Shown: positions 2,732-31,879, counted from the first letter of the stretch. The stretch is 50,301 nucleotides of DNA from Candidatus Hydrothermarchaeota archaeon (GCA_015521565.1 WANX01000132.1:1-50301); one strand, 5' to 3'. Translations and numbers: made by a program. The notes: generated by a model from the letters alone, not told the origin.

Positions 2732-3916
2732 CTATGGCAGAGCCCGCCTTATTATCCCCAGCATCTCCACAGCAAAGGCTGTTACAGAGGCGAGCAGGAG
2801 TGCAGAGCCAAGAAGAGAAGCAGCACCGGCGCCCAGGTACATACCTGAAGCGAGCAGCAGTACACCGGCATTGAAAATGTAGAAAATCCATCTGGAGCGG
2901 CTGGCTGAGAAGAGCTCCTTGAAGGAGGCGGGTGCCCTATCCCTCTCCCTGGGCAGAATTCTGGTCCATGTGAGGGTGGGTATTACATGGTAGAGTCCAC
3001 CTATTGCTGTCTGAACCACAAAGCCCAGAGCAGCAAGATGAGCGTGGAGAAGCGTAAGGTCCCTGCCCGGATACAGCGTCCCCAATATTCCAAGTATCAG
3101 CACCATGAGCAGATAACCCAGCGCTGCAAGAAAGAACCTGGCCTCCACCGGCTCCGACTTCACAGGCACCCGCGAAGGCGCTGTATAGCTCTTCACCATG
3201 TCGTATGTGAAAAGAAGTGCCGCAGCGAGCAGGATTAGCCCCCCCGGAAGAACCAGCTGCCTGAAGCCTGAGAAGCCCAGCACCATGATACCGGCGGCAA
3301 GGAGTGTCCCGTAAAATGTGTAGTCCAGCCAGCGGCGGTTGTAGATGTCCTTAACAACCAGCATGGGCAGCATCCAGGACATGGCGCCGAAAATTATCAG
3401 TGTCACACCCCCCACCAGGGCAAGGTGCGCGTGAGAGGCGCGGTAGCTGTATAGCACGGGGTTTAAGGCTATTAAAAAACCCAGGGTAGCGCCCAGGCTG
3501 AGAAGGACGCTGGAAGCTGCATAAAACTTGAAGGCATAGTTTTCTCCCCTGCGTTCTGCCAGAGTTGCCAGGATGTTGTAGGTGAACAGGTAGAAGCCCA
3601 GGAGCATCAGAAGCGCCCCGATGGAGGCTGCAGCAGCACTCGATGGATAGGTTATGGAGAAGAGTAGAAGTCCGGGATTAAATAGCCAGAAGCTTGCCTC
3701 TGCGGCACGCCTGCTGTGCAGCTCTGTTCCTGAGAGAGTTGGAACCTGCTGGTACATTGTGGCAATTATAACCCCGCATACAAATCCCACCAGGGCAAGG
3801 TGCACATGCACCGGTGTGGCGACAGGAAATCCCAGCAGCCCGGCTATACCCAGGAGTATCCCCAGGACAAGGTACACCAGCGCTGCTGCCAGAAAGCGCA
3901 GGACGATGGCGGACAT
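2732..3916 (-). CDS. Polytopic membrane protein with three HxH motifs (NnrS / heme-copper-oxidase-subunit-I-like)
   Basis: About 12 TM segments arranged as three repeats containing HVHLALVG, HAHLALVG and HAHLAALG. Start reassigned to ATG 3916. Confidence 0.65.
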   Translation of the reverse strand: MSAIVLRFLAAALVYLVLGILLGIAGLLGFPVATPVHVHLALVGFVCGVIIATMYQQVPTLSGTELHSRRAAEASFWLFNPGLLLFSITYPSSAAAASIGALLMLLGFYLFTYNILATLAERRGENYAFKFYAASSVLLSLGATLGFLIALNPVLYSYRASHAHLALVGGVTLIIFGAMSWMLPMLVVKDIYNRRWLDYTFYGTLLAAGIMVLGFSGFRQLVLPGGLILLAAALLFTYDMVKSYTAPSRVPVKSEPVEARFFLAALGYLLMVLILGILGTLYPGRDLTLLHAHLAALGFVVQTAIGGLYHVIPTLTWTRILPRERDRAPASFKELFSASRSRWIFYIFNAGVLLLASGMYLGAGAASLLGSALLLASVTAFAVEMLGIIRRALP

Positions 3917-3921
3917 ATCAA

Positions 3922-4041
3922 CTAACCGTGGATGAGCATTGGCAGACACCGGGTGCATATGTAGTGCTTGTCCTGCCTGTGGTAGTACTTAAGAAGGGGG
4001 ACCTCATCCTCACTTCGCTGGCAGTTTTCACATCTCTTCAT
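3922..4041 (-). CDS. 39-aa CxxC...CxxC zinc/iron-finger microprotein
   Basis: MKRCENCQRSEDEVPLLKYYHRQDKHYICTRCLPMLIHG; RBS GGAGG upstream; lies 5 nt before the next gene. Confidence 0.7.
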   Translation of the reverse strand: MKRCENCQRSEDEVPLLKYYHRQDKHYICTRCLPMLIHG

Positions 4042-4112
4042 GTCAGGAAATAGCCTCCTGCAAAATAAAATATTTTTTGCGAACATGTTCAAAAAAGAAA
4101 AAAGATTGGAGC

Positions 4113-5600
4113 TCAGGATCTCCTCCTTCTCCTGAGCATCGCATATACCACAAGAGGCACTGCAGCCAGTGCTGCCACAGATGTGGGACCGCACACGCCC
4201 TTCTGCTTCTCCAGCTTTGCGACGCGCTCCTCAAGCTCCTTCTTCTCCCGCTCCATCTGCAGCCACTCTTCCATCATGTTCAGCTTGTCCATCAGTGTAT
4301 CTACAGCACCGTTCCACTGAGTCCAGTCAGGGCCCATCATACTGGCACCCATCCTCCATCTGCGGCCATCGTGGTGCCAGATGTAGTAGTACATTATCTC
4401 TGGAATCTCATCGATCGGGTTGGACTTGTCGATGAGACCCTCCTCGTAGGCGGTATTCAGGAGCTTTTCGGCGTAGTCGTAGACGGTGTTGTAGTCGCTC
4501 ACAACCTTGTCGAAGCTCTCGAAGTAGCCATCCACCCAGTCGCTGGCGTGGCACACTCTGCACACCTTCTTCATCTCTGCTCTGCCCTTCTTTGCCTGCT
4601 CCTCATCGGGCTTCTGCTCTCCCAGTGGCACCTTGCTGGCATCGTCCCACTGAGGCGTGGACCTCTTTGGCTGCAGCTCCCAGTACAGCCTCGCCCCAAC
4701 GTCGTGGGTGCTCTCAACCACACCGCCGAAGCCGGACATGTGGCAGGTGGCGCAGGTGGGTGCGGCTATGTCCTCCGGTCCCCACTGGCCAGGTGGTACG
4801 TCCCAGTTCCAGCTGTCGCCGCTGCTCTCATATATGTTTCCGTGCTTGCTCTCCTTGTATATCTCTATCTGCGGATGGTCTGGACCCACGTGGCACTGGC
4901 CGCAGGTCTCCGGCTTGCGCGCCTCTGCTATGCTGAACCTGTGTCTGGTGTGACAGGCGGTGCAGGAGCCCATGCTACCGTCGGGATTAATCCTGCCTAT
5001 GCCGTTGTTGGGCCACCCGTCCACCAGCTTCCCGTCCCTGGCAATCACATAGCTGCCGTGGCACTGCATGCAGCCCAGCACCTGGTTCTCCTGATTGTAC
5101 TTCTCATCCTCCAGCAGGCCGATGCGCTTCAGGGCTCCGCTGTCTGGATAGAGGGGTGTGAGCCGTCCCCTTATGAAGTCCCTGGGATTGTTCTCCATGG
5201 CAGTCTCCTGCTTCAGCGGGTCCTTGCCCTGCTTGACCATCTCCTGGTACCATGGCTTCAGCGGACCTATGAAAGCCGCCCAGGCGTGCTTGCTCCTTGA
5301 GAACTCCTCCACCTGCTTGGGGTGGCAGCTCTCGCAGTACCTGGGCGAAACCACGGCTGTCACCCTGTAGCCAAAGTGGTCAAACCCCGAGGGGTCGTCC
5401 TCCTTTGCCTGGTGGCACACGTAGCACTTTACACCCACCTTGCTGTGCTTGCTCTCCTCCCACTGTTTTACTATACCAGGCGTTACCGTATCGTGACAGC
5501 TCAGGCATGGAGCACCCGGTTCTTTGAATTCCTGTGCCTTAACTGTGCTGAGCAACATCGCTGCAGCTATTGCAAAAATTAAGAGATGCTTTAACCTCAT
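4113..5600 (-). CDS. hao: Octaheme cytochrome c, hydroxylamine oxidoreductase (HAO) family, probably reductive (epsilon-Hao/OCC-like), with CGP-CTERM-like anchor
   Basis: Sec signal peptide. Eight CxxCH motifs (CLSCH, CYVCH, CESCH, CMQCH, CTACH, CGQCH, CATCH, CRVCH). HAO motifs WPNNGIGRINPDGS, GPDHPQIEIYKESKHG and WHHDGRRWRMGASMMGPDWTQWNG. Tail VCGP-TM-RRRRRS. Confidence 0.88.
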   Translation of the reverse strand: MRLKHLLIFAIAAAMLLSTVKAQEFKEPGAPCLSCHDTVTPGIVKQWEESKHSKVGVKCYVCHQAKEDDPSGFDHFGYRVTAVVSPRYCESCHPKQVEEFSRSKHAWAAFIGPLKPWYQEMVKQGKDPLKQETAMENNPRDFIRGRLTPLYPDSGALKRIGLLEDEKYNQENQVLGCMQCHGSYVIARDGKLVDGWPNNGIGRINPDGSMGSCTACHTRHRFSIAEARKPETCGQCHVGPDHPQIEIYKESKHGNIYESSGDSWNWDVPPGQWGPEDIAAPTCATCHMSGFGGVVESTHDVGARLYWELQPKRSTPQWDDASKVPLGEQKPDEEQAKKGRAEMKKVCRVCHASDWVDGYFESFDKVVSDYNTVYDYAEKLLNTAYEEGLIDKSNPIDEIPEIMYYYIWHHDGRRWRMGASMMGPDWTQWNGAVDTLMDKLNMMEEWLQMEREKKELEERVAKLEKQKGVCGPTSVAALAAVPLVVYAMLRRRRRS

Positions 5601-5692
5601 ATTCTCACCCAGTTAACAATCTCCTAATTCATATATTAAAAAGGTTTTTTTAAAAAGTCATTTAAATAAAGAAAGGGGTGTTAAAATTTAGT

Positions 5693-6793
5693 TTAGATGG
5701 ATACATGTGCATAGCGCCTCAATTCCGGCAGGGGTGAAGAAGCAGCGTACACTGTTCCTGCGCAGGTCTCAACATCCTCATGCCGGTGCACCAGCCTCAC
5801 GGCAGGTTCCCACCCATCACCGCGGCACGTGAGAAGTGCACCGTCTATGAATCCGGAATTTAAAGAAAACTTAATCAGCGCTGTAACAGCACCACCGTCC
5901 TGTCCCGCAGAATCCGCGGTGGAGCGCGCGCCCACTATTCGCCTGAACCTCCCCAGGTACTCCGCCCTCTGTCCGTCCCGGAACAGCGTGTCCTCGAGCA
6001 GTCTTAAGGGAAGCGCTGTTCTGGTGCATGCGGCGTAGCAGAGCTCACAACCCGCCGGGCACCTCCCATTAAGCCTGGGAAGTCCGTTTATCATCTGTAT
6101 CTGTCCGCACACCGCTGCACATGCGCCACAGGCATCGCACACACCCGTGGCCACTATCTCGCGCCACAGCTCCGCGTACCCCTTTCCGCTGGCTAACCGC
6201 AGCACCTGCTGCATGTCCTCCAGATTCCGGGTAGAGTAGTGGGGTACCTCCATCCCCTGCTCAATTCTGGCTTCAATTCTCCTGGCATTCTTCTCCACCT
6301 TGGACCCCGCAACCCGGCTCAGCTCCTCCACGCCATCCTCCAGCTCTATCAGCTCGACAGCACCCTCATCTACCGCCTCATTAAGCAGGATTTCTCCGGT
6401 GCGTGTTCTAACAATCAGGGTGCTCCATCCAGGAGGCGAGCCGGCGCTTCCGGCACTGATATCGGAAAGCTCTGAGGTGAAGTCCACACACAGCCTGCAT
6501 GCCATCCTCGTGTACCTCCTCAGCTCCCTCAGCGGCAGCACCATCTGCATCCTCTTCATTCTCAGTTTCACCACGCCTCCGGAAATCTCCATTCTTGTAA
6601 CCTCAGCAGCGCTTACGCCGTGCTTCTCCAGAAAACCACGCATGCAGGCGTAACTCCAGTTGCCAGTGCAGAACAGCCCAAGCACCAGCTCCACCCTCCC
6701 TATCCACTCTCTCCCGGTGGCTGCCTGCAACGCCTGCAGCTTTCGCAGCCCCTGCACCTGGCATGGAGTTCCCACAAATCCGAGCCTTCTCAC
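5693..6793 (-). CDS. Circularly permuted F420H2 dehydrogenase/FrhB-family subunit (FrhB_C, 2x[4Fe-4S], FrhB_N)
   Basis: Starts with GFVGTPCQ..LGLFC..CRLCVDFTSELSDISAG..GWSTLIVRT (FrhB C-domain). Then CDACGACAAVC...CPAGCELCYAAC (ferredoxin). Ends with QDGGAVTAL..IDGAL..WEP..AGTVY (FrhB N-domain). GTG start overlaps the napD stop, with RBS GAGGTGGA. Confidence 0.85.
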   Translation of the reverse strand: MRRLGFVGTPCQVQGLRKLQALQAATGREWIGRVELVLGLFCTGNWSYACMRGFLEKHGVSAAEVTRMEISGGVVKLRMKRMQMVLPLRELRRYTRMACRLCVDFTSELSDISAGSAGSPPGWSTLIVRTRTGEILLNEAVDEGAVELIELEDGVEELSRVAGSKVEKNARRIEARIEQGMEVPHYSTRNLEDMQQVLRLASGKGYAELWREIVATGVCDACGACAAVCGQIQMINGLPRLNGRCPAGCELCYAACTRTALPLRLLEDTLFRDGQRAEYLGRFRRIVGARSTADSAGQDGGAVTALIKFSLNSGFIDGALLTCRGDGWEPAVRLVHRHEDVETCAGTVYAASSPLPELRRYAHVSI

Positions 6794-7026
6794 TCCACCT
6801 CGTCCTCCACGTTCAGATACACCAGCTGGAAGTCCACAACATCCTCCCAGTTTTCTATCCTCTCAGACAGTTTTTTCAGCTCCTTTGTGGTTCTGCCCTC
6901 CATAACCACTGCTATTCCCTTTGCACCCCTGCCCTTGACCTCCACCCCCGGAAGACTCCGGAGGCTCCTCTCAACCTCCTCCTCCCTGCCCGGCACGGGC
7001 ACAACAACTGCTCCGGATATCGGCAA
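6790..7026 (-). CDS. napD: NapD chaperone for periplasmic nitrate reductase
   Basis: TTG start after GGAGGTGA; (M)PISGAVV...LPGVEV...GIAVVMEG...VVDFQLVYLNVE is the NapD pattern. Confidence 0.85.
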   Translation of the reverse strand: MPISGAVVVPVPGREEEVERSLRSLPGVEVKGRGAKGIAVVMEGRTTKELKKLSERIENWEDVVDFQLVYLNVEDEVE

Positions 7027-7031
7027 GTGCT

Positions 7032-7874
7032 TCACCTCCTGATTCTGTAATACAGGGCGCCGGAGGGACATGCATCCCTGCACAGCCCACAATTATCACA
7101 GTCTTTATCGTTGTAATCTTTATCTATACCCAGCTCAACAGGGCGCAGACCGTAGGGGCATACGCGATTGCATTCACCACAGAAGATGCATCTCTCCACC
7201 TTTTTGCCAATTCGCAGCAAACGCTTTGCCCCCAGCGCTGAGAGGAATCCTCCCGCAGGGCACAGAGAGCGGCACCACACCCGCCTCGCTGCCAGCGTGT
7301 CTACCGTTAGCACACCCGCAAGCAGGAGCAGCCCACCGGTGCTCAGGGTACCGTACGTCAGGAGGTAGAAGAGCTCCCTGCCCACAACATGGGGCAGATC
7401 AAAGGCGGAAACAACCGGAGTTGCGAAGAGCAGCGTGAGCAGCAGAGAGAAAACAAGCAGCTGGTAGCGGTGGTCTCCCGCTATGAGCACCAGTCTCCTG
7501 CGCATCCACAGACGCCCCCTCAGCCGCTGGGTGAGCTCCAGGAGAAACCCCGCCGGGCACAGCCAGGAGCAGAATACCCGGCCCATCAGAAGGGTAACCA
7601 GCAGCGGTAAAAGAGCACTGAGAATCAGCGGCAGGTACAAAACCCTGGATGCCAGTACCGCTTCAAGCGCTGCCAGCGGATGGGTGATGCTCACTCCATA
7701 GAAGCTGAAGCTCCATGTATCACCCCATACCCTGGACACCCTCGGGGTTGGAAGCTCGCCCATAGCTATTCTTGAGGGTGCCCATTCTATGGGATTCTGA
7801 GAGTACATGGGCACGGCTATGAGCACCCCGAGCACCAGTAGCTGGAAAATCCGCCTCGCATGCTCTGCCTTCAT
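7032..7874 (-). CDS. napH: NapH/MauN membrane quinol dehydrogenase subunit
   Basis: TM segments; GRVFCSWLCP and WCRSLCP CxxxCP motifs; two C-terminal CxxCxxCxxxCP clusters. Start ATG 7874. Confidence 0.9.
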   Translation of the reverse strand: MKAEHARRIFQLLVLGVLIAVPMYSQNPIEWAPSRIAMGELPTPRVSRVWGDTWSFSFYGVSITHPLAALEAVLASRVLYLPLILSALLPLLVTLLMGRVFCSWLCPAGFLLELTQRLRGRLWMRRRLVLIAGDHRYQLLVFSLLLTLLFATPVVSAFDLPHVVGRELFYLLTYGTLSTGGLLLLAGVLTVDTLAARRVWCRSLCPAGGFLSALGAKRLLRIGKKVERCIFCGECNRVCPYGLRPVELGIDKDYNDKDCDNCGLCRDACPSGALYYRIRR

Positions 7875-7875
7875 A

Positions 7876-8616
7876 CTACAGCCTCTTAACCACCCTAACT
7901 GCAGGCAGCTCAACCCCGGGTCCGGCTCTCCCTATCACATTCCTCACCATGGCTGCATACCTCTCCTCGAAGTAGGTGAGCTTTCTTCCCGGCTCAAGGG
8001 TGGCGCTGGCTATCTTCTCATTTACAGGACACACGTAGTTGCACATCCCGCAGCCAACGCAGTGCTTCTCGTTGACGTAGGGCCGTATCCCCACCGCACC
8101 CTCAATAACCTCGCTGGGGGGATAGTCCAGCATGGCATCATCCCGAAGGGGACAGTTGTAGTAGCATTCACCGCAGGAGTCGTACTGCCAGGCGAGGCAG
8201 ATATCACGGTTGAGCACAGAAACACCCATCTTCAGCTCATCCGGCATAGAGAGCAACGTTTCTCTGGTATTTCTTATTCTCATCAGTGCGCCCGTTGGAC
8301 ATGCTTCCCCGCAGAGCAGATACTCGCCCAGGGGCTCGTCTTTGCCCTCGCCGGTGCGCTTAAGACACAGATAGCACGGAGTCTGCAAGGGGTCTATGTA
8401 GGGTGTGGCAAACAGAGCCCCTGCAGCTATGTCGAAGAACCTTATTGAATCGTAGGGGCACGCCTCACCGCACCTACCACAGCGTATGCAGCGGGCAAGA
8501 AAGTCACGGGTGGCTCCCGGAGGGCGAATCACCTGCCTGCGGACGCCTCCTCCAATACCGGCGAAGCCGAGCAGAAACAGGCTCTTCATGAAGTTCCTGC
8601 GGCTCAGCCTCACCAT
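7876..8616 (-). CDS. napG: NapG/MauM polyferredoxin
   Basis: Tat motif SRRNFMK; IRPPGA..FLARCIRCGRCGEACP; four Cys clusters including CLAWQYDSCGECYYNCP and CVGCGMCNYVCP. Confidence 0.9.
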   Translation of the reverse strand: MVRLSRRNFMKSLFLLGFAGIGGGVRRQVIRPPGATRDFLARCIRCGRCGEACPYDSIRFFDIAAGALFATPYIDPLQTPCYLCLKRTGEGKDEPLGEYLLCGEACPTGALMRIRNTRETLLSMPDELKMGVSVLNRDICLAWQYDSCGECYYNCPLRDDAMLDYPPSEVIEGAVGIRPYVNEKHCVGCGMCNYVCPVNEKIASATLEPGRKLTYFEERYAAMVRNVIGRAGPGVELPAVRVVKRL

Positions 8617-9041
8617 CCACCCTCCCTTTCAATCTCAACCACCGCCACCTCATAGTGTCTGCCCTTAATCTGATACGGAACCACCACAATACCCCTTACC
8701 CTCACCTCAGCACCCTGCATGGGCATTGTCCCTCTGGTCACAATCCATATATCACCTGTGCCGTCGCTCAGGAGATATGGCTGCTCATCCACAAACTCAA
8801 AGGCAAGTCCGGGTGTCACAGTACCCCTGAGAACCACCTCCTTTCCCTCATACGCCTCCGGATTTTCCAGTATATCTCCTATCCTGAGCTCATCGCCGCT
8901 CTGCTGCAGAATACCTGAAGTAGCCCCCTCGCCCGAAGCATCTGCCCCCTCCACATCTCCGACCATGGCCACCTCCTTCTCCACACAGCCAGGGAGGAGC
9001 AAAAGCATCAGCAGCAGCACAGCAGACCGCATCTCATCCAC
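8610..9041 (-). CDS. Lipoprotein with probable OB-fold domain, inside the nap operon
   Basis: Lipobox-like LLLPGC; IGDILENPEAYEGKEVVLRGTV...LSDGTGDIWIV..VRVRGIV is an OB-fold-like pattern; no CxxCH. Confidence 0.7.
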   Translation of the reverse strand: MDEMRSAVLLLMLLLLPGCVEKEVAMVGDVEGADASGEGATSGILQQSGDELRIGDILENPEAYEGKEVVLRGTVTPGLAFEFVDEQPYLLSDGTGDIWIVTRGTMPMQGAEVRVRGIVVVPYQIKGRHYEVAVVEIEREGGW

Positions 9042-9142
9042 CGGCCTTTTTTAATTTAAATATATTGCATCAATAACTTATAAAGATAATTGTAAAATAA
9101 AATTTAGAAAACCTATTTTTTAAAACCAGAAGGGGCGGTGGC

Positions 9143-11620: not shown

Positions 11621-11784
11621 ACTTTCACCTCCGCCTCTCTATAATATTCATGAATTTTAAGGTTAATAAAACCTTTTTTTAAAAATTTTATTTATATCCC
11701 TCCTCCATGTTAAACAAATTTTTATACACCCCCTCGACCAGACCTTTTCAGTTTAATCACATATTTAATTTCAAACGATTGTAT

Positions 11785-12444
11785 TTAAATGTTGCCTTCC
11801 AGTGACAGCATCGTCATGAAGGCCCGCTTTCCCGTGTCGGATATGTAGTAGTGGCGGTTTTCGTCCTGTGCTATCAGCCCCGCCTGCTTTAGCACCCTGA
11901 GGTGGAATCCAAGTTTGGCGGGCTCGTCGATGTTGAGGTAGTTCATAATATCGGTAAAGCGCGCCTTTCCCTTCGCATGGAGGTACTCGATTATCCTGCG
12001 CCTTATGGGGTTGGATAGAGATTTTAGCACATCCTTTCCCGCTTCTCCAGTGCCTGTCTTCTCCCTGAAAACCTCCTCTATCCTGGTCTCCTCAAGAAGC
12101 CGGAGTATCTTGTTCCTTATCTCCTCCACTTTGAAGGGTTTGAGTATGTAGTCGCTGGCACCCATCTTCATGGCCCGCACGGCACTGTCCACAGTACCAA
12201 AGGCGGTGATTATTATCACCTTCGTGAGAGGCGAGTATTTCTTTACGTTCCTCAGCACCTCCATCCCATCGGCTCCGGGCATCACCAGGTCTGTAATAAC
12301 CAAATCGAACTTCTGCTTCTTTATCATGTTTATTGCCTTTACACCATCCTCTGCTATTTTCGGGGAGTATCCCTTCTTCTCCAGCAAGATCTTCAGTCCT
12401 TCCCTGAGCTTCGGGTCATCTTCAACTATCAGTATTTCCTGCAT
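11785..12444 (-). CDS. Response regulator, REC plus ArsR-like winged-HTH output
   Basis: ILIVEDD, DLVITDLVMP, ITAFG and KPF, followed by LSNPIRRRII..FHLRVLKQAGLI. Confidence 0.9.
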   Translation of the reverse strand: MQEILIVEDDPKLREGLKILLEKKGYSPKIAEDGVKAINMIKKQKFDLVITDLVMPGADGMEVLRNVKKYSPLTKVIIITAFGTVDSAVRAMKMGASDYILKPFKVEEIRNKILRLLEETRIEEVFREKTGTGEAGKDVLKSLSNPIRRRIIEYLHAKGKARFTDIMNYLNIDEPAKLGFHLRVLKQAGLIAQDENRHYYISDTGKRAFMTMLSLEGNI

Positions 12445-20344: not shown

Positions 20345-20430
20345 CTCAAAACAAACAAAAAGAGTGACCAGTAAAAATTTTTTAAATTTTTAAAATTGTT
20401 TTATACATCTCGCTGTTCTCCACTGTCGCC

Positions 20431-21154: not shown

Positions 21155-21180
21155 CGCGCGCTCCAGCGCCTCCTCAAGCT

Positions 21181-21879: not shown

Positions 21880-21902
21880 ACCTTAAAAAATTAAAGGGGT
21901 GC

Positions 21903-22322: not shown

Positions 22323-22323
22323 C

Positions 22324-22983
22324 TCACACCAGGTAGTACACCTGCGGCCTCGTGCCGTACTCCTTCTTGAGCTGAATAGCTCGCCTGCTCGCTATGAGCC
22401 TTGAAACCTCGCTGCTGGGGTCGTCGAGGTCGCCGAAGTACCTCGCTCCTGCGGGGCACACGGGTACGCACGCAGGTGAGGTGTCGTAGTCACTACCCGG
22501 CTTCTTGCCCTCCTTCAACGCCTTCTCGATGCGGTGCCAGCACAGGGTGCACTTCTCGGCAACGCCCGGCTTCTTCCTGTGCAGGGGGTGCCTCGCCTCA
22601 GCTGGCAGAGCCTCGTAGGGCGTCTTCTCGCCGTTGGGGTAGAGGGTCTTCTCCTTGTCTATGAAGTGGATTACTCCGTAGGGACAGGCGGCGATGCAGT
22701 AGCGGTAGCCCCTGCACTTTTCATAGTCTATGAGCACCACGCCGTACTCGTTCTTGCTTATCGCCTTCGCGGGGCACGCCTTAACACAGGGCGGATTCTC
22801 GCAGTGCTGGCAGTTCATTGGCACAAAGATTCTGCGAACGCTGGGATACTTTCCCTGCTCGTACTCGAGCACAAAGTTCCAGTAGTTCCCCGGCTGGACC
22901 ATGTTCTCAACTTTGCACGCGGCGACGCAGCTCCTGCAGCCTATGCACTTCGCCAGGTCTATAACCAGGCCGTATCTCACCAT
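22324..22983 (-). CDS. Four-cluster Fe-S beta subunit (ArrB/DmsB/PsrB family)
   Basis: CIGCRSCVAAC, PMNCQHCENPPCVKACP, CRGYRYCIAACPY, KCTLC..PACVPVCPAGARYFGDLDDP and GTRPQVYY. Confidence 0.92.
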   Translation of the reverse strand: MVRYGLVIDLAKCIGCRSCVAACKVENMVQPGNYWNFVLEYEQGKYPSVRRIFVPMNCQHCENPPCVKACPAKAISKNEYGVVLIDYEKCRGYRYCIAACPYGVIHFIDKEKTLYPNGEKTPYEALPAEARHPLHRKKPGVAEKCTLCWHRIEKALKEGKKPGSDYDTSPACVPVCPAGARYFGDLDDPSSEVSRLIASRRAIQLKKEYGTRPQVYYLV

Positions 22984-22996
22984 CTACACCACCTCC

Positions 22997-25702: not shown

Positions 25703-25789
25703 TCCACCACACTCCTGCCTTCGACATTTTAAAATTTTTATTCAGTCAAATAAAAAGATTTTTAGAAGTATAATTATATAAAATAATTG

Positions 25790-25808
25790 TGTTTCGACAT
25801 TTGAAACA
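25790..25808. promoter_or_regulatory. Candidate operator: inverted repeat in the divergent promoter region between the molybdoenzyme operon and moeA
   Basis: TGTTTC-N7-GAAACA. The 10-mer TTCGACATTT occurs at both 25720 and 25793. Confidence 0.35.
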
Positions 25809-25999
25809 TGATTAAAACTCTTTTATGTATATTATAACAGTTGCATCCTGATAAATGTTTGAAAATAGTGTAAAACATCCTTTAAAAAATTAGTCTGCCG
25901 CTTCACCACTTTATAAAAATTTTTTTATAAAAACCTTTTTATATTAAATCGTTTAAAAAAACTACTGATTTAAATATAAACGTTTACAGGTGGCACCGG

Positions 26000-27223
26000 A
26001 TGGAAACCCTTGTGCCTCTGCTCAGAGCACGGGAGCTCGTGGATGCCCTGAGAGAAAGGTACTATTTCAACCGTTCCTGTGAAGCTGTGGGGGTGGACAC
26101 CTCCCTCCCGGGCAGGGAGCTTTCAAAGGATGTGGTTGCAGCAGAAGATTCACCGCCCCGGGACATCGCAAGTTACGACGGGTACGCCATGCGCAGCAGC
26201 GATGCGGAGCACTATCCGCTGCGCATCGTGGGAAGCATCTATGCGGGTGATGCCTACGAAACCCTGCCACAGCTTCGCAGGGGCGAGGCGATGTACATCG
26301 CCACCGGAGCGTTTCTGCCTCCGGGTGCTGATTGCGTGCTCCGGCTTGAAGATGCGCGTGTGGAGGGTGACAGGCTGTACGGTGTACCAATCGAGAAGGG
26401 CACAAAGGTGGTGCCCCGGGGGAGCAACTACCGGCGGGGTGAGGTCATCCTGAAGGCTAAAACCAGGATAAGGGCGCAGGAGTTCGGGATTCTGTGCGGC
26501 ATGGGTATAGAAGAGGTTGAGGTGTACCGCAGACCCCGTGTGGCAGTGCTTGCAACAGGCAATGAAATAGCCCGCGGAATAATCAGAGACATAAACTCCT
26601 TTGTGGTGCTCGCGCTGCTGGAGAAGTGGGGGTGCGAGACAGACTATCTGGGTGCAATCCAGGACGATTACGGGGCAACCAGGCGCGCCATCGCAGAGGC
26701 TGCAGAGCACTACGACTGCGTTGTCACGAGCGGCGGTGTAAGTGTGGGGAAGCGGGACTATGTACTCCGCGCTATTGAAGAACTCGGCAGGGTGGTGTTC
26801 TACAAGGTCAGGACGCGGCCCGGCAAGCCCATAGCAGTTGGCGTGGTGGAAAACACGCCCGTGTTTGCGCTGCCGGGCAAGCCCACCGGCGCTCTTGTGG
26901 CTGCTCAGCTTCATCTGCGCAGGTACTTCCTGGGAAGAGTGGAGGAACCCTTCCTCTACGCCAGGATAACAGAAGACATACTGCTCTCCAGAAAAGACAC
27001 CGACTCGCCAGACATCGCAAACCTGGTGTTTGTTCACCTTGAAGACGGCCTCGCAAAGCCGGTTGGCTTCGAAGGAAGCGAGATGCCCCTGATGAAGAGC
27101 GGTGATAAGTATAACGTCTCTGCAATTGCATCCAACCTGCGCAGCGCCCTGGTGGACGGCTATGCCATACTGGAGCGGGATACAAGGCGGGGGGAAAGGG
27201 TGAAGGTTCATCTGTTCATGTGA
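26000..27223 (+). CDS. moeA: Molybdopterin molybdotransferase MoeA family
   Basis: SYDGYAMR, IATGAFLPPGADCV, ATGNEI, DINS, TSGGVSVGKRD, RPGKP and LPGKP. Confidence 0.9.
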   Translation: METLVPLLRARELVDALRERYYFNRSCEAVGVDTSLPGRELSKDVVAAEDSPPRDIASYDGYAMRSSDAEHYPLRIVGSIYAGDAYETLPQLRRGEAMYIATGAFLPPGADCVLRLEDARVEGDRLYGVPIEKGTKVVPRGSNYRRGEVILKAKTRIRAQEFGILCGMGIEEVEVYRRPRVAVLATGNEIARGIIRDINSFVVLALLEKWGCETDYLGAIQDDYGATRRAIAEAAEHYDCVVTSGGVSVGKRDYVLRAIEELGRVVFYKVRTRPGKPIAVGVVENTPVFALPGKPTGALVAAQLHLRRYFLGRVEEPFLYARITEDILLSRKDTDSPDIANLVFVHLEDGLAKPVGFEGSEMPLMKSGDKYNVSAIASNLRSALVDGYAILERDTRRGERVKVHLFM

Positions 27224-27233
27224 GGTGTTGCTC

Positions 27234-27830
27234 ATGGAGCTGAGGGAAGAAGAGGTTGTGGAGCTGGCTGAGAAGCTGCACGGCCACCTGGCGCCGGGGA
27301 TAGCGCTGGGCGTGCGCATGGCCACGCTGGCGCTTAAAAAACTTGGCACCAGGCGGGGGAGCAAGAAGCTCATTGCCATAAGCGAGACAGCTCGCTGTCT
27401 CGCAGACGGCATGCAGGCAGCAACCGGTGCTACGCTGGGGCACGGCAACGCCTTTGTGGAAAACTACGGCAAGCTTGCCCTGACCGTGGGCAGGGTGGAC
27501 ACAGGGCAGGGGTACCGCGTAGCCCTGCGCCGCGACGCATGGAGGCACTCCGCACTCATGAAGAAGTGGATGCTCCGCGAGGGGAAGCTGACCAGGCAAG
27601 AGGAGCACGTGCTTGCGCAGGAGCTCCTGCACCTGGATGAGGAGTGGCTCGATGTGGAGCCGGTGAAGATTGAGATGGAGGCGCTCTTTGAGAACTCAGC
27701 GATAGTACGCTGCTCCTCCTGCGGCGAGCTGGTGCCCGAGAAGCTCAGCATAGGCGAAAACGGCACGCGCATGTGCAGAAGCTGCGCCGGCGTTGGCTAC
27801 TACCGCAGGGCGGAGTGTGTGCTGCCATAG
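27234..27830 (+). CDS. FmdE-family protein with Zn finger (second copy)
   Basis: HGHLAPGIALGVRM, ETARCLADGMQ, TLGHGN, GKLALT and CSSCGE...CRSC. Confidence 0.88.
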   Translation: MELREEEVVELAEKLHGHLAPGIALGVRMATLALKKLGTRRGSKKLIAISETARCLADGMQAATGATLGHGNAFVENYGKLALTVGRVDTGQGYRVALRRDAWRHSALMKKWMLREGKLTRQEEHVLAQELLHLDEEWLDVEPVKIEMEALFENSAIVRCSSCGELVPEKLSIGENGTRMCRSCAGVGYYRRAECVLP

Positions 27831-27900
27831 GCTGCTCCTTGTGCCCTCCAACCGGGGGCGGTGAGAAAGGTTTTAAAACCATCGCATTATAAAAAGAGCT

Positions 27901-29514
27901 ATGAACCTGCTGGAGTTCGCCGAGGTGGAGGAAGACACCGGCGTAATTAAGGAGATTCTGGAGGAGTTTGGAGAGGAGTGTGTTTTCGACCCCTACTGTC
28001 TGGCAGAGCTCACCAGGAGGGCTCTTTACAGCGGACTTTCCCTTCCGGCCAAGAGGAGGCTGCTGAAGCAGACCTATCGCGTGTGGCATCCCCTTCCCCC
28101 GCCCTGGAACCAGCAGTTTCTCAACCATCTGCTGAAAAACCACGGGGTCTCATCCATAGGCTCGCTGCGAAATTTTCTGAGGTTTGTGGACGAGCCACGC
28201 CCTGCCTATGAGAACCTGAAGCTGATTCTGAGTTCACGCTCCTCCAGGAAGGACGAGCTTGCCTTGATGATTCTCTCAGGGGCACCGCAACTGGCAGATA
28301 AGCTTGCAAAAGAAGAGCCCGAGGTTGCTGTTCGGCTGATGAAGAAGGTGCTGCGAAGCGGGAGAGACTTCGGGGAGCTGCTCAGAAAGGCTGTGCCCAT
28401 TATATACAGCATCGAGAGGAACGATGCCTTTCTCAAAAGCTTCCTGAAGCTGAAACTGAGGAACAGGAGGGAGGAGGAGATTTTTATCGGATTTCTGAAG
28501 GCCTGCAGGGAGTGCGGAGACCTCGCCTTCGTGCGGAGAGCCTTTGACAAAACCATAGAGCGCGTGGGCAAGGTCAGAATCCGCAGGCTGGCCTACATCT
28601 ACGGAGCTGAGGTCTTTGGAGAGGAGTACAGGAAGAGGGCGCTTAAGGACAGAGCTAAAAGTATAAGGAAGTGGGCTGCGGGAGAAAAGCCCAGGAGATG
28701 GAGTCCGGAGGAATACATAAAGAGGGGTATGTGGTATCTGGAGCAGGGCAGGGCAGACTCTGCCCTGAAGTGTGCTGAAACCGCCTGCGAGAAGGGCGCC
28801 GGCGACAGGGCGCTGATTTTGAAGGCGCAGGCTCTCTACGCGCTGGGAGACTTTGCGAGAGCCGAGGCGCTGCTGGACGGGCTGATTCAGAAGCAGAACC
28901 ACGACGCCTACGTGACTAAAGCGCTGCTGCTGCTCAGCTCCGGGAGACTGGAGGAGGCGCTGCGCACCGCAAGGGAGGGTGTGGAGAGGTATCCGGAGAG
29001 CTTCGACCTGAGGATGTGCCTTGCCCAGCTGCTGTACTTCCAGGGGGATGAAGAGTACATGAGAATCCTGGAAGAGCTCCACCGCGAATATCCCTGGCGC
29101 ACAGCAAGCTTCATGCTCACCAGCTGGATGGAGACGCCGCCCCTGGAGGTTATCCGGGAAAGATTTGCGGCCTTCAACACCGCCCTTTTTGGGGGCGAAG
29201 ATGAGCTGAGCGAAGAGGTAATTGAATGGTTCAGGGACATGGGGATGCGGGAACAGTCCCAGGCCCTGAAAGCCATAAAGCTGTGGATGGAGGGAAGGGA
29301 TGAGGAGGCGGAGCAGCTGATTCGCTCCATCCCCGAGAGGTTTGAGTTTCTACCGCTGCACCTGGCGTTTCATCTCAGAAGGGGAAACGCGCAGAAGGCG
29401 CTTCAGGTGCTGGACGCAATAGAGGCGGAGAGGCTCTCAGAAGCTCTGCCGGAGGAAATTCGGGAGATGCTGAAGAAGCTCAGGAGCTTCCTGGAAAGCT
29501 CTACATCACCATGA
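27901..29514 (+). CDS. Helical-repeat / TPR-containing protein of unknown function
   Basis: TPR-like units (YIKRGMWYLEQGRADSALKCAE; KAQALYALGDFARAEA; KALLLLSSGRLEEAL); TATA-like element upstream. Confidence 0.7.
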   Translation: MNLLEFAEVEEDTGVIKEILEEFGEECVFDPYCLAELTRRALYSGLSLPAKRRLLKQTYRVWHPLPPPWNQQFLNHLLKNHGVSSIGSLRNFLRFVDEPRPAYENLKLILSSRSSRKDELALMILSGAPQLADKLAKEEPEVAVRLMKKVLRSGRDFGELLRKAVPIIYSIERNDAFLKSFLKLKLRNRREEEIFIGFLKACRECGDLAFVRRAFDKTIERVGKVRIRRLAYIYGAEVFGEEYRKRALKDRAKSIRKWAAGEKPRRWSPEEYIKRGMWYLEQGRADSALKCAETACEKGAGDRALILKAQALYALGDFARAEALLDGLIQKQNHDAYVTKALLLLSSGRLEEALRTAREGVERYPESFDLRMCLAQLLYFQGDEEYMRILEELHREYPWRTASFMLTSWMETPPLEVIRERFAAFNTALFGGEDELSEEVIEWFRDMGMREQSQALKAIKLWMEGRDEEAEQLIRSIPERFEFLPLHLAFHLRRGNAQKALQVLDAIEAERLSEALPEEIREMLKKLRSFLESSTSP

Positions 29515-29908
29515 CCTCACCCTCTCGCGTGATTGCAACCTCAATCTCCGAGAGCACCCTCCTGCCCCTTATCTTCTCTCCGGCACCCTGCTGTATGAGC
29601 ACCGCCAGCGACGGAAAGCTGTAGGATATCCATATCCCCGCCTCATCCGCCCGGCGGTATATTTCACGCACGGCTTCGTTCAGGTCCGTCTCAGGCTTTA
29701 TAACAACACTCAGGGGCGCCTCAAGCATCCTCACAAGCCTCAGGGTGTTCTCAGCACGTCTTATGTTCTCCCTCGCCTTCCTCTCAGTGGCCGAAACATT
29801 TGCCACCGTCGTGCCCAGGCGCCTTGCAATCTCGCTGGTGCTCAGCCCCTGAGCCTTGAGCCTGAGCACCTCAATCTGGCGCTCCGTGAGCACCGTATCA
29901 CGCACCAT
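29501..29908 (-). CDS. tfx: Tfx-family DNA-binding regulator
   Basis: TVLTERQIEVLRLKAQGLSTSEIARRLGTTVANVSATERKARENIRRAENTL, then IYRRADEAGI. Confidence 0.85.
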   Translation of the reverse strand: MVRDTVLTERQIEVLRLKAQGLSTSEIARRLGTTVANVSATERKARENIRRAENTLRLVRMLEAPLSVVIKPETDLNEAVREIYRRADEAGIWISYSFPSLAVLIQQGAGEKIRGRRVLSEIEVAITREGEVMVM

Positions 29909-30404
29909 GGCGCAGGAACCTCTCCTCAACGAATTCGGCCAGCCTCTCAATGTCGTCGAATCCGAAGACCCGGCACTCCGCCTCCACTTCAGCGTCGCTC
30001 ACCACTGCAACTATCTCACCACCCGCGGCTCCCGTGAAGAGCTTCAGGTCCTCCTCGCCGGTTGCGACCAGTATCTTGGGCGTCTCGGCCCTCGCGTAGC
30101 CTTCGGTTAGCACCACATCCATATCCCCCATGTACCTCCCTACAATATCGGTGAGGAACATTTCCCTGGGGGTAGTGCGCATCAGAACAAGGCGGTCCGG
30201 AGAAGATATCGCCACAACATCTGCACCGGCGGCGGCATGTCTCCAGGTATCCTTGCCAGGCATGTCCATGCTGAATCCATAGTGGATGTGGTGTTTCACA
30301 GTGGCCACGCGGTAGCCTCTCGCCTTGAGCGCCGCGATCAGGCGCTCCATCACGGTGGTCTTCCCGGCCTTCTTCCTGCCTATAACTGAAACTATGGGAG
30401 GCAT
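29898..30404 (-). CDS. mobB: Molybdopterin-guanine dinucleotide biosynthesis protein MobB
   Basis: GRKKAGKTT P-loop, VATVKH, GKDTWRHAAAGA and VLTEGY. Confidence 0.92.
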   Translation of the reverse strand: MPPIVSVIGRKKAGKTTVMERLIAALKARGYRVATVKHHIHYGFSMDMPGKDTWRHAAAGADVVAISSPDRLVLMRTTPREMFLTDIVGRYMGDMDVVLTEGYARAETPKILVATGEEDLKLFTGAAGGEIVAVVSDAEVEAECRVFGFDDIERLAEFVEERFLRHGA

Positions 30405-30494
30405 CGTTAAATTATAATGTTTAATTCGATATAAAATTTTCGGACTTTTCCGGGTAAATAAAACAAAAGGATTTAAGCTGGCATCTGTACGGGC

Positions 30495-31178
30495 TCAAAA
30501 GCTGTCCGGAAAGCACAGGTGCAGCCACCTGTCAAAGAAGACCTCGGCCCAGCGGTTGAGCTCCCTCACCCGCTCCTCCAGGTTCTGGAGAATCTCCTCC
30601 CGCCTTTCGGGCACTTCTCCGGACCACTCGCGCACCATCTCCTCCGTGACCTCAAGGTGGAACTGCAGTGCGTAGCTTTTGCGAGCACGGAATGCCTGAT
30701 GGGGATACAGCTCCGAGCTTGCGAGCAACCTGCCTTCGCGCGGAAGGTCGAAGGTTTCACCGTGCCAGTGGAAAACCTCAAGGCGCGGGGGAAAGGCGGA
30801 GAAAACCTCGTCCCTTCTTCCCTCATCGGTCAGCGTTATGGGATACCACCCGAGTTCCTTCTCCTCTCCTGGGTACACCCTCGCCCCGAGGGCGCTGGCA
30901 ATGAGCTGCGACCCCAGGCAGACTCCCAGCACCGGTTTATCAGCCGCCATAGCGCGCTTTATAAGCGCCTCCTCCTCTGCGAGGTAGGGGTACTCCTGCC
31001 TGTCGTTGACGCTCATTGGTCCGCCAAGAATCACAATCAGGTCATACTCCAGAGCACCTTCCAGGCCGTCTCCCCGCCACAGATGGCGGTACTCCACACC
31101 GATACCCCGAGCCTCTGCAAACTCCTCAAAACAGCCTAAGTGCTCCCCCTCCGCATTCTCAAGCGCGAGCAGCCTCAC
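30495..31178 (-). CDS. Type 1 glutamine amidotransferase-like protein
   Basis: LGGPMSV, GVCLGSQL, HWHGETF and QFHLE. Confidence 0.9.
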   Translation of the reverse strand: MRLLALENAEGEHLGCFEEFAEARGIGVEYRHLWRGDGLEGALEYDLIVILGGPMSVNDRQEYPYLAEEEALIKRAMAADKPVLGVCLGSQLIASALGARVYPGEEKELGWYPITLTDEGRRDEVFSAFPPRLEVFHWHGETFDLPREGRLLASSELYPHQAFRARKSYALQFHLEVTEEMVREWSGEVPERREEILQNLEERVRELNRWAEVFFDRWLHLCFPDSF

Positions 31179-31187
31179 GCCACGACC

Positions 31188-31400
31188 TCAGCACGAGCTG
31201 TGTTCTATCGCTCCCTCCGGGCATGCCTCCACGCAGGCGCAGCACTCAATGCAGTCAGCCACGCGCGGGGCGGTGCTCTTACCCTCCACAAGTTCATAAA
31301 CCTCTGCAGGACATACGTCCACACACTCTCCATGACCCTTGCACTTGTCATAGTCTATCTTGATGGTAACATCAGCTTTAAACTCCCTTATGTCCGCCAT
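31188..31400 (-). CDS. Dicluster ferredoxin
   Basis: CKGHGECVDVCP and CIECCACVEACP. Confidence 0.9.
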   Translation of the reverse strand: MADIREFKADVTIKIDYDKCKGHGECVDVCPAEVYELVEGKSTAPRVADCIECCACVEACPEGAIEHSSC

Positions 31401-31450
31401 GTCTCCACCTCCTGAATTATTTCCCCCTCCCTCTATTTATACTTGACGCC

Positions 31451-31879
31451 CTACGGGTGTTCCTCCACCCAGACTTCTCCCCCTGCCGTGTACTCCTTCT
31501 TCCAGATGGGCACATGCTTCTTGAGCTCATCTATAACGAAACGGCATGCCTCAAAAGCGTCCTTTCTGTGCTCTGCGGCGGCAACGATCAGCACTATATT
31601 CTCACCTGTCCCCAGCTCTCCATAGCGGTGCACCACCGAGACCTCAATCAGGTCAAACTTCTTTTTTGCGAGCTGGCGAATCTCCTCAAGCTTCTTCTCA
31701 GCCATGCCCGGATAGTACTCAAACTCCAGCTTTTCCACATCCCTGCCGCGAGAGAAGTCGCGCACAGTGCCCAGGAAGGTGACCACACCGCCTATTCGCT
31801 TCGACACCGCCCTCACCCGGTTTATCTCCTCCTCCACCGAGAAGTCCTCCCTCTGCACGCGCACCCATTCGTATGTCAT
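31451..31879 (-). CDS. moaE: Molybdopterin synthase catalytic subunit
   Basis: GGVVTFLGTVR, LEFEYYPGMA, HRYGEL, HRKDAF and PIWKKE. Confidence 0.95.
   Translation of the reverse strand: MTYEWVRVQREDFSVEEEINRVRAVSKRIGGVVTFLGTVRDFSRGRDVEKLEFEYYPGMAEKKLEEIRQLAKKKFDLIEVSVVHRYGELGTGENIVLIVAAAEHRKDAFEACRFVIDELKKHVPIWKKEYTAGGEVWVEEHP

Follow-up and report, generated by a model that had tools for sequence, protein, structure and literature searches.

Between positions 2732 and 31879 of contig WANX01000132.1 of Candidatus Hydrothermarchaeota archaeon (GCA_015521565.1 WANX01000132.1:1-50301; the whole contig of 50,301 nucleotides is called the window below), genes for a nitrate reductase (NapA), an octahaem cytochrome c of the Hao family, an exported molybdoenzyme and the synthesis of molybdenum cofactor lie next to one another. 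The question raised by this locus is whether these genes form one respiratory system, in which nitrate ammonification would draw electrons from F420H2 and possibly extracellular arsenite, as the original prediction had it, or two independently regulated respiratory modules, which it had named as the alternative. The explanation favoured here, with some reserve, is a composite one: the 29 kb would hold three units side by side and not one pathway, namely a nitrate/nitrite respiration locus (2243-15818), an accessory unit with a putative arsenic oxidoreductase (15811-25910) and a cofactor unit (26000-31879) that would make and insert the molybdenum cofactor. The cluster is chromosomal, as the last 17 kb of the window consist of housekeeping genes (Phe- and Val/Ile-type tRNA synthetases, Trm1, IlvC). 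The source genome measures 1.72 Mb with 56% G+C and is 93% complete; at that completeness no McrA was found in it.

Synteny was mapped by tblastn on stretches fetched from relatives, in a sample of 41 genomes consisting of the source genome (G000) and 40 relatives, of which G001-G004 belong to the same genus. The accessory unit was not found in two of these four congeners, G002 and G003, in which the genes on either side of it are contiguous. Their order is winged helix-turn-helix (wHTH) regulator, oxidase-fold membrane protein, hao, FrhB-like gene, napDHG, lipoprotein, napA, response regulator (RR), histidine kinase, LVIVD lipoprotein and a second RR, which is directly followed by MoeA, FmdE, Tfx, MobB, GATase and MoaE, the RR and MoeA genes being adjacent. 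The nucleotide homology between the window and G003 and G002 breaks off sharply at 15810 and restarts at 25911, with 41 bp in between in G003. On the basis of this homology break and the synteny in relatives, 15811-25910 is a 10.1-kb accessory unit that is present or absent among congeners, while Nap-Hao and the cofactor toolkit make up a conserved core. Contigs from the DNA runs of two studies span both junctions of the block, so its arrangement is not an assembly chimera. One run (X5) gave little or no cover over 17409-20413, and no contig spans the whole block; nothing was inferred from this.

The distribution of the single genes follows the same division. Orthologues of the catalytic molybdenum (Mo) subunit of the accessory enzyme (901 aa) were found in six of the 41 genomes (G000, G001, G004, G011, G036 and G037); a seventh candidate, in G022, was rejected as a 37% partial match to another enzyme. 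NapA orthologues at 72% identity or more are present in eight genomes and Hao orthologues at 59% or more in nine, including all eight that carry NapA. In G001 the block occupies the same chromosomal site as in G000, and in G004 it lies on a short contig of its own. The gene for an SBF-family transporter has a match in the block of G004 and none in that of G001. G036 and G011, which belong to other families, carry the genes for the Mo subunit, the iron-sulfur (FeS) subunit, the dihaem cytochrome c and TorD with no Nap nearby on the stretches fetched, and G037, again from another family, has the Mo subunit without Nap alongside on a contig of only 2.7 kb. On the side of the core, napA, napD and hao adjoin MoeA/FmdE/MobB/Tfx in G008 and G013 without NapG, NapH or the FrhB-like gene. 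NapG, NapH and the FrhB-like protein were thus gained or lost together, and the FrhB-like gene occurs in the nap operon only with NapG and NapH (genus g1). In G001-G003 the wHTH gene (2243-2722) follows the oxidase-fold gene (85-89% identity), the oxidase-fold gene adjoins hao, and the two-component system of the nap locus stays with nap (kinase 80-89%, RR 92-96% identity), as does the LVIVD lipoprotein with that system; the 143-aa lipoprotein of the nap operon is conserved in G001-G004 (64-67%). The modules are therefore largely unlinked in relatives, an outcome that the original prediction had itself named as counting against it. This presence or absence of the block, together with the separate two-component system that each module possesses, leads us to prefer the composite over the single system of the original prediction, and the alternative of two independently regulated respiratory modules fits best.

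The genes of 2243-31879 were named by Pfam and NCBIfam profile searches of the window proteins and are as follows.

2243-2722, minus strand: membrane-anchored wHTH regulator, DUF7343/MarR-like (Pfam DUF7343, 44.6 bits)
2732-3958, minus strand: compact COX1-like oxidase-fold membrane protein with 12 helices (Pfam COX1, 78.8 bits in three stretches)
4113-5600, minus strand: octahaem Hao-family cytochrome c with Sec signal (eight CxxCH; Multi-haem_cyto, 111 bits)
5693-6793, minus strand: circularly permuted FrhB/FdhB/FpoF-like FeS flavoprotein, last gene of the nap operon (FrhB_FdhB_C, FrhB_FdhB_N)
6790-7092, minus strand: NapD chaperone (Pfam NapD, 51.3 bits)
7032-7913, minus strand: NapH-type membrane FeS protein (Fer4_5, 53 bits, and C-terminal dicluster)
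7876-8616, minus strand: NapG-type polyferredoxin exported by the twin-arginine (Tat) route (Fer4 families; N-terminal twin-arginine motif SRRNFMK)
8610-9041, minus strand: 143-aa lipoprotein between napA and napG (lipobox LLPGC)
9143-11620, minus strand: NapA of the monomeric Desulfovibrio type with Tat signal (PDB 2jio, 634.5 bits)
11785-12453, minus strand: RR-wHTH of the nap locus (Pfam)
12422-13879, minus strand: Tll0287-like HAMP histidine kinase with haem-c motif (Tll0287-like domain, 72.6 bits; CLRCH)
13876-14862, minus strand: LVIVD-repeat beta-propeller lipoprotein (Pfam LVIVD, 69.8 bits)
14999-15139, plus strand: tatA, left flank of the insertion (TatA_B_E, 44.7 bits, cut-off 21)
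15171-15818, plus strand: RR-wHTH, left flank of the insertion (homologous to its neighbours in G001-G003, 79-88% identity)
15870-16784, minus strand: SBF-family transporter (SBF, 60.5 bits)
16768-17427, minus strand: archaeal RR-wHTH of an XSR-type set (Pfam)
17434-19452, minus strand: HAMP-GAF histidine kinase of the XSR-type set (Pfam)
19436-20344, minus strand: PhnD-like binding lipoprotein (substrate-binding protein) of the AioX/ArxX/ArrX family (PDB matches and pocket residues)
20431-20607, minus strand: tatA within the accessory block (TatA_B_E, 58.5 bits, cut-off 21)
20591-21154, minus strand: FmdE-like protein with zinc ribbon (FmdE, 98.1 bits)
21181-21879, minus strand: TorD-family chaperone (Nitrate_red_del, 106.6 bits; TorD, 78.8 bits, below the cut-off of 132)
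21903-22322, minus strand: lipoprotein dihaem cytochrome c (CSYCH, CLGCH)
22324-22983, minus strand: four-cluster FeS subunit (Fer4_11; ArrB model, 178.1 bits against a cut-off of 450)
22997-25702, minus strand: Tat-exported catalytic Mo subunit of the bis-molybdopterin guanine dinucleotide (bis-MGD) type (Pfam domains)
26000-27223, plus strand: MoeA (family scan)
27225-27830, plus strand: FmdE (family scan)
29501-29950, minus strand: Tfx (family scan)
29898-30404, minus strand: MobB (family scan)
31451-31879, minus strand: MoaE (family scan)
within 26000-31879: TPR protein and GATase, members of the molybdenum cofactor toolkit (family scan)

Gene content and order were as predicted at every named position. 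Nearly all genes from 25702 down to 2732 indeed lie on the minus strand, the only plus-strand genes being the left-flank tatA and RR. Both predicted tatA genes were found, inside the cluster and not beside it. A minus-strand open reading frame (ORF) at 14975-15607 is not a gene but a low-complexity shadow opposite tatA and RR, and an ORF for a 70-aa 2x[4Fe-4S] ferredoxin was observed on the minus strand at 31188-31400, between the GATase and MoaE genes.

The best PDB match of NapA is that of D. desulfuricans (2jio, 634.5 bits), with which the stretch GNPRLCMASAVGGY, containing the conserved Cys-Met of the active site, is identical; formate dehydrogenases reached at most 369 bits in the same search. 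The protein scored below the NCBIfam equivalog cut-offs (655.9 bits against 904, and 616.5 bits against 930.55) and was assigned to NapA by its nearest solved relatives, the active-site stretch and its operon with NapD, NapG and NapH. The name NapH was given on the basis of operon context and of the NapADGH annotation that was published for Hydrothermarchaeota by Carr et al. 2019 (PMC6775978), by which the Nap part of the locus was already known. Like that NapADGH set and Desulfovibrio NapA (2nap/2jio) with NapGH and NapD, the operon has NapD, NapG and NapH and no NapB; unlike them, it also contains a lipoprotein gene and the permuted FrhB-like gene. A genome-wide search gave no match to NapC/NirT. 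The 143-aa lipoprotein has no match in Pfam or NCBIfam; it and the LVIVD beta-propeller lipoprotein are conserved and travel with the nap locus. The kinase of this locus is predicted to be a haem-c-containing sensor, Tll0287-like and with a CxxCH of its own. The label "heme-sensing" of the original prediction is too strong where the signal is concerned.

With its eight CxxCH motifs and its match to the HAO-type multihaem profile, Hao belongs to the octahaem HAO family. The nearest PDB match was the octahaem protein of Ignicoccus (4qo5, 199.6 bits), followed by Kuenenia 6h5l (107.6 bits), which is an HAO-like subunit of a reductase complex, and Nitrosomonas HAO (86.5 bits). No significant alignment with N. 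europaea HAO was obtained for the C-terminal region, in which the position of the cross-linking Tyr was sought. Igni_0955 of Ignicoccus hospitalis (4qo5) has eight CxxCH and the same fold family in common with the protein and is likewise archaeal and membrane-associated; the Hao described here, the activity of which is a prediction, differs by its Cys-Gly-Pro-type C-terminal tail. This tail reads V-C-G-P and is followed by a hydrophobic helix, a predicted anchor, and RRRRRS; it is similar to the CGP-CTERM sorting signal, although it has no match among the NCBIfam models. The pairing of Nap with Hao is similar to that in Campylobacterota of hydrothermal vents, in which Nap and the epsilonproteobacterial Hao carry out ammonification. 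The main text of Kato 2019 reports Nor genes and no NirS/K, and the main texts of three papers on Hydrothermarchaeota contain neither "hydroxylamine" nor "molybdopterin", nor does that of Kato 2019 contain "octaheme". The Nap-Hao pairing would supply the nitrite step that was left open in the published reconstructions. Nap and the octahaem Hao make a plausible route from nitrate to ammonium, and the nitrate ammonification gene set that had been predicted holds at this strength.

In the FrhB-like protein, FrhB_FdhB_C covers residues 2-153 and FrhB_FdhB_N residues 288-357, with two ferredoxin-type Cys motifs in between, instead of the canonical order of N followed by C. Only six of the 120 relatives listed align over at least 98% of its length, five of them being 53-99% identical and one 34%; the remaining relatives among these 120 cover at most 59%, partial coverage of the kind that a circular permutation predicts. 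The FrhB/FdhB/FpoF members can use ferredoxin as well. The presence of an FrhB-like gene in the nap operon bears out this part of the original prediction; from its co-occurrence with NapH, the protein may feed NapH from F420H2. No link between FrhB and Nap is evident in the part of the literature on NapH, F420 and archaea that was covered. In the proposed scheme for the core locus, which would be inherited within the lineage and switched by its own haem-c-containing kinase and regulator, NapG/NapH and the FrhB-like flavoprotein on the cytoplasmic side would feed the exported NapA with electrons from quinol, F420H2 or ferredoxin, NapA would reduce nitrate, and the Ignicoccus-type, membrane-anchored Hao would take the nitrite on, probably to ammonium.

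The oxidase-fold membrane protein next to hao would be the likely membrane partner of Hao. Its AlphaFold2 model, made with a 50-sequence alignment (408 aa; pLDDT, the predicted local distance difference test score, 95.2), has 12 helices. In Foldseek, CcoN was the best match, with a query-based template modelling score (TMq) of 0.80-0.82 (8smr_E, 0.82), and NorB reached 0.64-0.67. As the 12-helix model matches both CcoN and NorB, the protein is predicted to have a complete oxidase fold and not to be a fragment. It consists of three four-helix units (residues 15-134, 141-259 and 271-406) that score 61.2, 44.3 and 35.0 bits against each other; in 100 shuffles the scores averaged 14-15 bits and peaked at 25-35. 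Thirds of canonical oxidase genes from the same genome gave 13-18 bits in two cases and 26-33 bits in a third. An H-x-H motif occurs in the second helix of each unit, and the only His residues are those at 51/53, 176/178 and 305/307 plus that at 324; all six H-x-H His are kept in 10 of the 13 closest relatives. Subunit I of haem-copper oxidases and nitric oxide (NO) reductases (NOR) has six canonical His, including the helix-7 pair that serves CuB or FeB. Helix 7 of the present protein (208-229) lacks His and hence this pair. Compared with CcoN of cbb3 oxidase (3mk7/8smr) and NorB of cNOR, the protein therefore shares the 12-helix fold, but it is only 408 aa long, lacks the helix-7 His pair and has three repeats that are detectable in the sequence, each with an H-x-H. 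It might bind three bis-His haems, or it might reflect the triplication by which the oxidase fold was built. The Atlas look-up returned only unnamed or loosely named clusters, and a paralogue is present elsewhere in the genome (G000:C34:44997-46055). Three to four full-length genes of the COX1 family (oxidase/NO reductase) were also observed in this supposedly strict anaerobe (C90:3204-4556, C128:2762-4039, C83:8187-10947).

The arsenic link of the accessory unit starts from its binding lipoprotein, which scored 217.2 bits with ArrX (6x6b), 157-159 with AioX and 44-71 with phosphite/phosphonate binders (PtxB 71, PhnD 53-60). The AioX/ArxX/ArrX subfamily is characterized by the pocket Y88, C106, Y131, S161, S163, H192 and D210, whereas PhnD is without the Cys (Badilla et al., PMC5908839). 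All seven residues are kept in the lipoprotein, as Y83, C101, Y129, S159, S161, H190 and D208. As reported there, AioX and ArxX bound only arsenite, and ArrX bound arsenate and, about 150-fold more weakly, phosphate; the ten oxyanions tested included antimonite, selenate, thiosulfate and tetrathionate (PMC5908839). A preference for arsenate as the ligand, based on the higher similarity to ArrX than to AioX, was considered and dropped, since the phylogeny of XSR proteins tracks 16S and not enzyme type (Badilla et al., PMC5908839). The genes for the binding protein, kinase and regulator overlap or abut (16768-20344) beside those for the Mo enzyme; there are no ABC transporter genes in the block, and among the relatives the binding protein was found only in genomes with the Mo subunit (4/41). 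The set resembles AioXSR of Rhizobium sp. NT-26 (AioX 6esk/6eu7), whose sensor belongs to this subfamily and has a pocket identical to the present one, and the Arr XSR set in that ArrX of Chrysiogenes arsenatis (6x6b) is the best PDB match of the binding protein; the regulator here is an archaeal RR-wHTH. We infer that the block sensor senses an arsenic oxyanion in the manner of AioX/ArxX/ArrX, its binding being predicted from the pocket. The neighbouring gene that had been called acr3 does not deserve this name: it scored 48.8 bits with the Acr3 model (TIGR00832; cut-off 282.8) and 47.8 bits genome-wide, as the sole Acr3-like match, and its product is classed as an SBF-family transporter and not as a demonstrable Acr3.

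The Mo subunit begins with SRREFLK, a Tat motif. Of the scored candidates, 972 are related to it at E<=1e-10, and every listed one with at least 50% identity is unnamed or generically named. In NCBIfam it stayed far under the cut-offs of all curated families, those of PhsA (258 bits against 694) and ArrA (NF041714; 202 against 1600) included, and in the PDB the nearest protein was ArrA (160.5 bits), with the polysulfide/thiosulfate reductase PsrA second (137.8). Its C192 aligns with C193, the Mo-ligand Cys of ArrA from Shewanella ANA-3 (6cz7_A). The Tat signal, an FS0 motif, the Cys Mo ligand and the adjacent gene for a four-cluster FeS protein are the features of the Arr/Arx/Psr branch, and all of them are present here. 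Arr enzymes carry the motif RGRY (163-166 in ANA-3) and Arx enzymes GRGWG/XGRGWG (PMC13685797). Both RGRY and GRGWG are absent from the present protein, which has the signature W-G-H-G-K-Y (W160, G161, H162, G163) at the position of RGRY; H-G-K-Y is invariant in a 15-sequence alignment and present in 44 of 45 pattern-matched ORFs of the loci. In the FS0 motif, D59-x2-C62-x3-C66-x27-C94, an Asp takes the place of the first Cys. The same Asp was found in 7 of the 15 aligned sequences and in 11 of 49 pattern-matched ORFs, all of them from thermophile or subsurface lineages. Placed by its scores with profile hidden Markov models and PDB entries, the Mo subunit would belong to an unnamed sister family near Arr/Arx/Psr. 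This family may or may not correspond to the deep clade beside ArxA/ArrA that was described by Leu 2020.

The block contains neither NrfD nor NapC/NirT genes, and the whole genome has one gene of the NrfD family. A 139-aa dihaem cytochrome c is encoded next to the FeS subunit. H69 and H72 of this cytochrome are invariant in 38 of 38 relatives, whereas 26 of these have Met62 and 3 have Met129; both haems are therefore probably bis-His. When the FeS subunit was modelled together with the mature cytochrome, the complex reached a median score of 0.76 against 0.00 for the best control, with runs sharing at least 55% of their contacts and a partner pLDDT of at least 72. Of 80 solved complexes, 58 attained the mark used in this modelling, as did 2 of 110 mismatched pairs; these counts are roughly valid here as the present alignments were our own. 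The model supports a three-subunit enzyme. ArrAB of Shewanella ANA-3 (6cz7) is similar in its bis-MGD subunit, which is Tat-exported and has Cys as the Mo ligand, in its four-cluster FeS subunit and in its TorD-type chaperone, but the enzyme described here differs by its dedicated lipoprotein dihaem c, the Asp at the first FS0 ligand and the replacement of RGRY, H189, K198 and Y210. The electron donor of Shewanella Arr is a c-type cytochrome instead of an ArrC subunit. With ArxB'ABCD/ArxXSR of Alkalilimnicola ehrlichii, compared by motif and description only, the block shares the superfamily branch, the XSR kind of regulation and a Gly at position 166, but GRGWG, an NrfD-like ArxC and ArxB' are absent. 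AioBA of Rhizobium sp. NT-26 also exchanges electrons with c-type cytochromes, but its catalytic subunit is unrelated at the family level (arsenite_ox_L, 31 bits), and a Rieske subunit is absent here.

The Mo-subunit family was also followed in other genomes, using the best 80 of 280 confirmed stretches from one-genome-per-species data. Neighbours were sought by tblastn with the window proteins and by ORF clustering with family scans of cluster representatives; many of the loci are cut by contig ends, so that neighbour counts are lower bounds. Among the 80 loci, 79 have the FeS subunit, 70 TorD, 61 the dihaem cytochrome, 31 the binding protein, 30 the kinase and 24 plus 6 (tblastn) the regulator, and the dihaem gene follows the FeS gene in 61. 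Of the 25 binding proteins encoded nearby, which come from 22 loci, 24 keep the pocket Y-C-Y-S-[ST]-H-[DE]. Sigma-54 regulators of the AioR/ArxR type occur in 23 loci, Acr3 in 7 (four representatives tested, 374-447 bits, cut-off 283), a cluster of thioredoxin-type ArsC in 3 (one tested, 174.3 bits, exactly at the cut-off), an ArsP-type permease in 3 and an ArsR-type regulator in 2; NapC/NirT was found in 5, and TauE, MobA and MoaA in 4 each. Six more large ORFs were scanned: those of L060 and L091 are AioA (1238 and 1279 bits, respectively; cut-off 359), those of L088 and L094 are Arr/Arx-like but do not reach the ArrA cut-off (435 and 446 bits), and the remaining two had no match. The hosts include Thiobacillus, Sulfuritalea, Hydrogenophilales, Rhodoplanes, Chromatiaceae and Azospirillum, and range from Thiobacillus to Archaeoglobaceae. 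An isolate of WOR-3 was reported not to grow on arsenate, a result that bears on the family only if this strain carries the gene.

A soluble FeS protein of 510-570 aa was observed after TorD in 19 loci (e.g., L058:6163-7785 and L060:14470-15999). It has three ferredoxin-type motifs, which makes it a tri-cluster protein, and its C-terminal CxxC...CxxC is zinc-ribbon-like; in the archaeal blocks this place is taken by the FmdE-like zinc-ribbon protein. In loci of Sulfuritalea and relatives (L096, L097, L098, L101, L104), two divergent sets of binding protein, kinase and regulator flank the Mo gene, and another gene for an FeS subunit lies at the edge of the locus; these loci may represent a larger arsenic island with two different Mo enzymes.

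Taking the sensor pocket and the arsenic-gene neighbourhood of the family together, the arsenic link of the Mo module is well supported by comparison of sequences, which upholds the metalloid-related function that had been predicted for it. In the composite reading, the binding lipoprotein would sense an arsenic oxyanion outside the cell and signal through the HAMP-GAF kinase to the archaeal RR-wHTH. The latter would turn on a Tat-exported enzyme made up of the Mo/W-bis-MGD subunit, the FeS subunit and the lipid-anchored, probably bis-His dihaem c, with TatA, TorD and FmdE of the block as matching helpers. This enzyme would trade electrons with an extracytoplasmic cytochrome pool and not via a quinol-binding NrfD subunit. 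That arsenic is its substrate we regard as fairly likely, and as to the direction, arsenate reduction is leaned to slightly over arsenite oxidation in this anaerobe, which uses CO/H2 and is limited in electron acceptors. Carr 2019 (PMC6775978) described the host lineage as anaerobic and carboxydotrophic, as having several alternative oxidants and as short of oxidants; this description favours a reductase. Such a reductase must draw on other extracytoplasmic cytochromes, given the lack of NapC/NirT and the single NrfD-family gene in the genome.

Several findings weigh against parts of this reading. The arsenate-binding residues of Arr are replaced in the Mo subunit (R165 by H162, Y166 by G163, H189 by R188, K198 by H197 and Y210 by F209), and the enzyme stands no further from thiosulfate/polysulfide reductases than from Arr (PhsA 258 bits, higher than ArrA with 202), by which a sulfur compound or other oxyanion is a possible substrate. 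Neither type of ArsC nor a true Acr3 was found in the genome (93% complete), an odd gap for an organism that respires arsenic. In the wider family, 49 of the 80 loci lack the sensor and most have no arsenic marker beyond it, many of the contigs being short. Many bacterial hosts are phototrophs or denitrifiers that oxidize sulfur, and AioA accompanies the family in some loci; an oxidase would fit both facts. In the core locus, Hao need not be the ammonifying enzyme, as an NrfA-family gene lies on another contig (C100:13784-14947, 167.5 bits). Finally, the block adjoins nap at the same site in two congeners (G000, G001), which functional coupling could explain.

The alternative that survives best, a tentative one, keeps the composite locus and makes the accessory enzyme an arsenite oxidase that acts outside the cell, with electrons passing from Mo via FeS and dihaem c to the cytochrome c pool and on to any high-potential acceptor available, the three to four full-length haem-copper oxidase/NOR genes, Hao or Nap being the candidates. 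The family is common in the Thiobacillus, Sulfuritalea, Hydrogenophilales, Rhodoplanes, Chromatiaceae and Azospirillum hosts, AioA is no more than 10 kb away in L060 and L091, and the Arr/Arx-like enzymes of L088 and L094 point the same way. So do the partner, a cytochrome c and not a quinol-oxidizing anchor, the Gly at position 166, as in GRGWG of Arx and not the Tyr of RGRY, and the COX1-family genes on C90, C128 and C83. Against this stand the two distal haem ligands of the dihaem c, both probably His, as c haems with bis-His ligation are usually low-potential donors, as in NapB. The host lineage, described as short of oxidants, also argues against an oxidase, and no element in the block links it to one.

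It is rather improbable that the accessory enzyme and its sensor act on a substrate other than arsenic, such as thiosulfate, polysulfide, tetrathionate or oxyanions of selenium or antimony. For this speak the top NCBIfam score with PhsA and the second rank of PsrA in the PDB, the absence of the Arr and Arx substrate motifs, the TauE sulfite-exporter genes in four loci and the many sulfur-oxidizing hosts. The retention of all seven residues of the AioX-subfamily pocket speaks against it, as does the recurrence of Acr3, ArsC, AioA and Arr/Arx-like genes alongside the family; moreover, among the ten oxyanions the three characterized sensors recognized nothing but arsenite, or arsenate and, weakly, phosphate (PMC5908839).

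Somewhat less probable still is the integrated super-cluster of the original prediction, in which extracellular arsenite, next to F420H2, would drive nitrate ammonification by direct transfer from the dihaem c to Nap or Hao. The Mo block lies 11 kb from napA at one chromosomal site in G000 and G001, the redox partners all face the outer compartment as judged by their Tat or Sec signals and lipoboxes, and Nap lacks a NapB or NapC of its own, so that an outside cytochrome donor is conceivable. However, two of the four other genomes of the genus keep Nap-Hao without the block, the block occurs without Nap on the stretches fetched from G011, G036 and G037, the two-component systems are different, and NapGH already provides a donor route. 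In addition, arsenite oxidation and nitrite reduction would both take place on one side of the membrane, so that no proton gradient would arise from them alone. A long shot is the further proposal that the Mo subunit, FeS subunit and dihaem c make up a third, cytochrome-c-wired class of arsenic oxidoreductases beside Aio and Arr/Arx, with arsenite electrons going here to Nap/Hao and ammonium and with a second input of F420H2 via the permuted FrhB-like protein, NapH and NapG.

The composite reading thus remains the preferred one. New in it are the evidence from the sensor pocket, the mapping of the indel, the predicted docking of the cytochrome, the permuted FrhB-like protein and the repeat-bearing oxidase-fold protein, as well as the archaeal re-wiring of the sensor set, in which an RR-wHTH replaces the sigma-54 regulator and a tatA gene is included in the block. 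The permuted FrhB-like protein, gained with NapGH, and the oxidase-fold protein with its threefold repeat are of interest for bioenergetics independently of arsenic. The locus is also a tidy test system, as it combines a known sensor pocket and an expressible three-subunit enzyme with natural strains that have or lack the block. If the accessory enzyme does handle arsenic, a widespread family would be missing from gene surveys of the arsenic cycle, because these seek the aioA, arrA and arxA motifs that the Mo-subunit family lacks.

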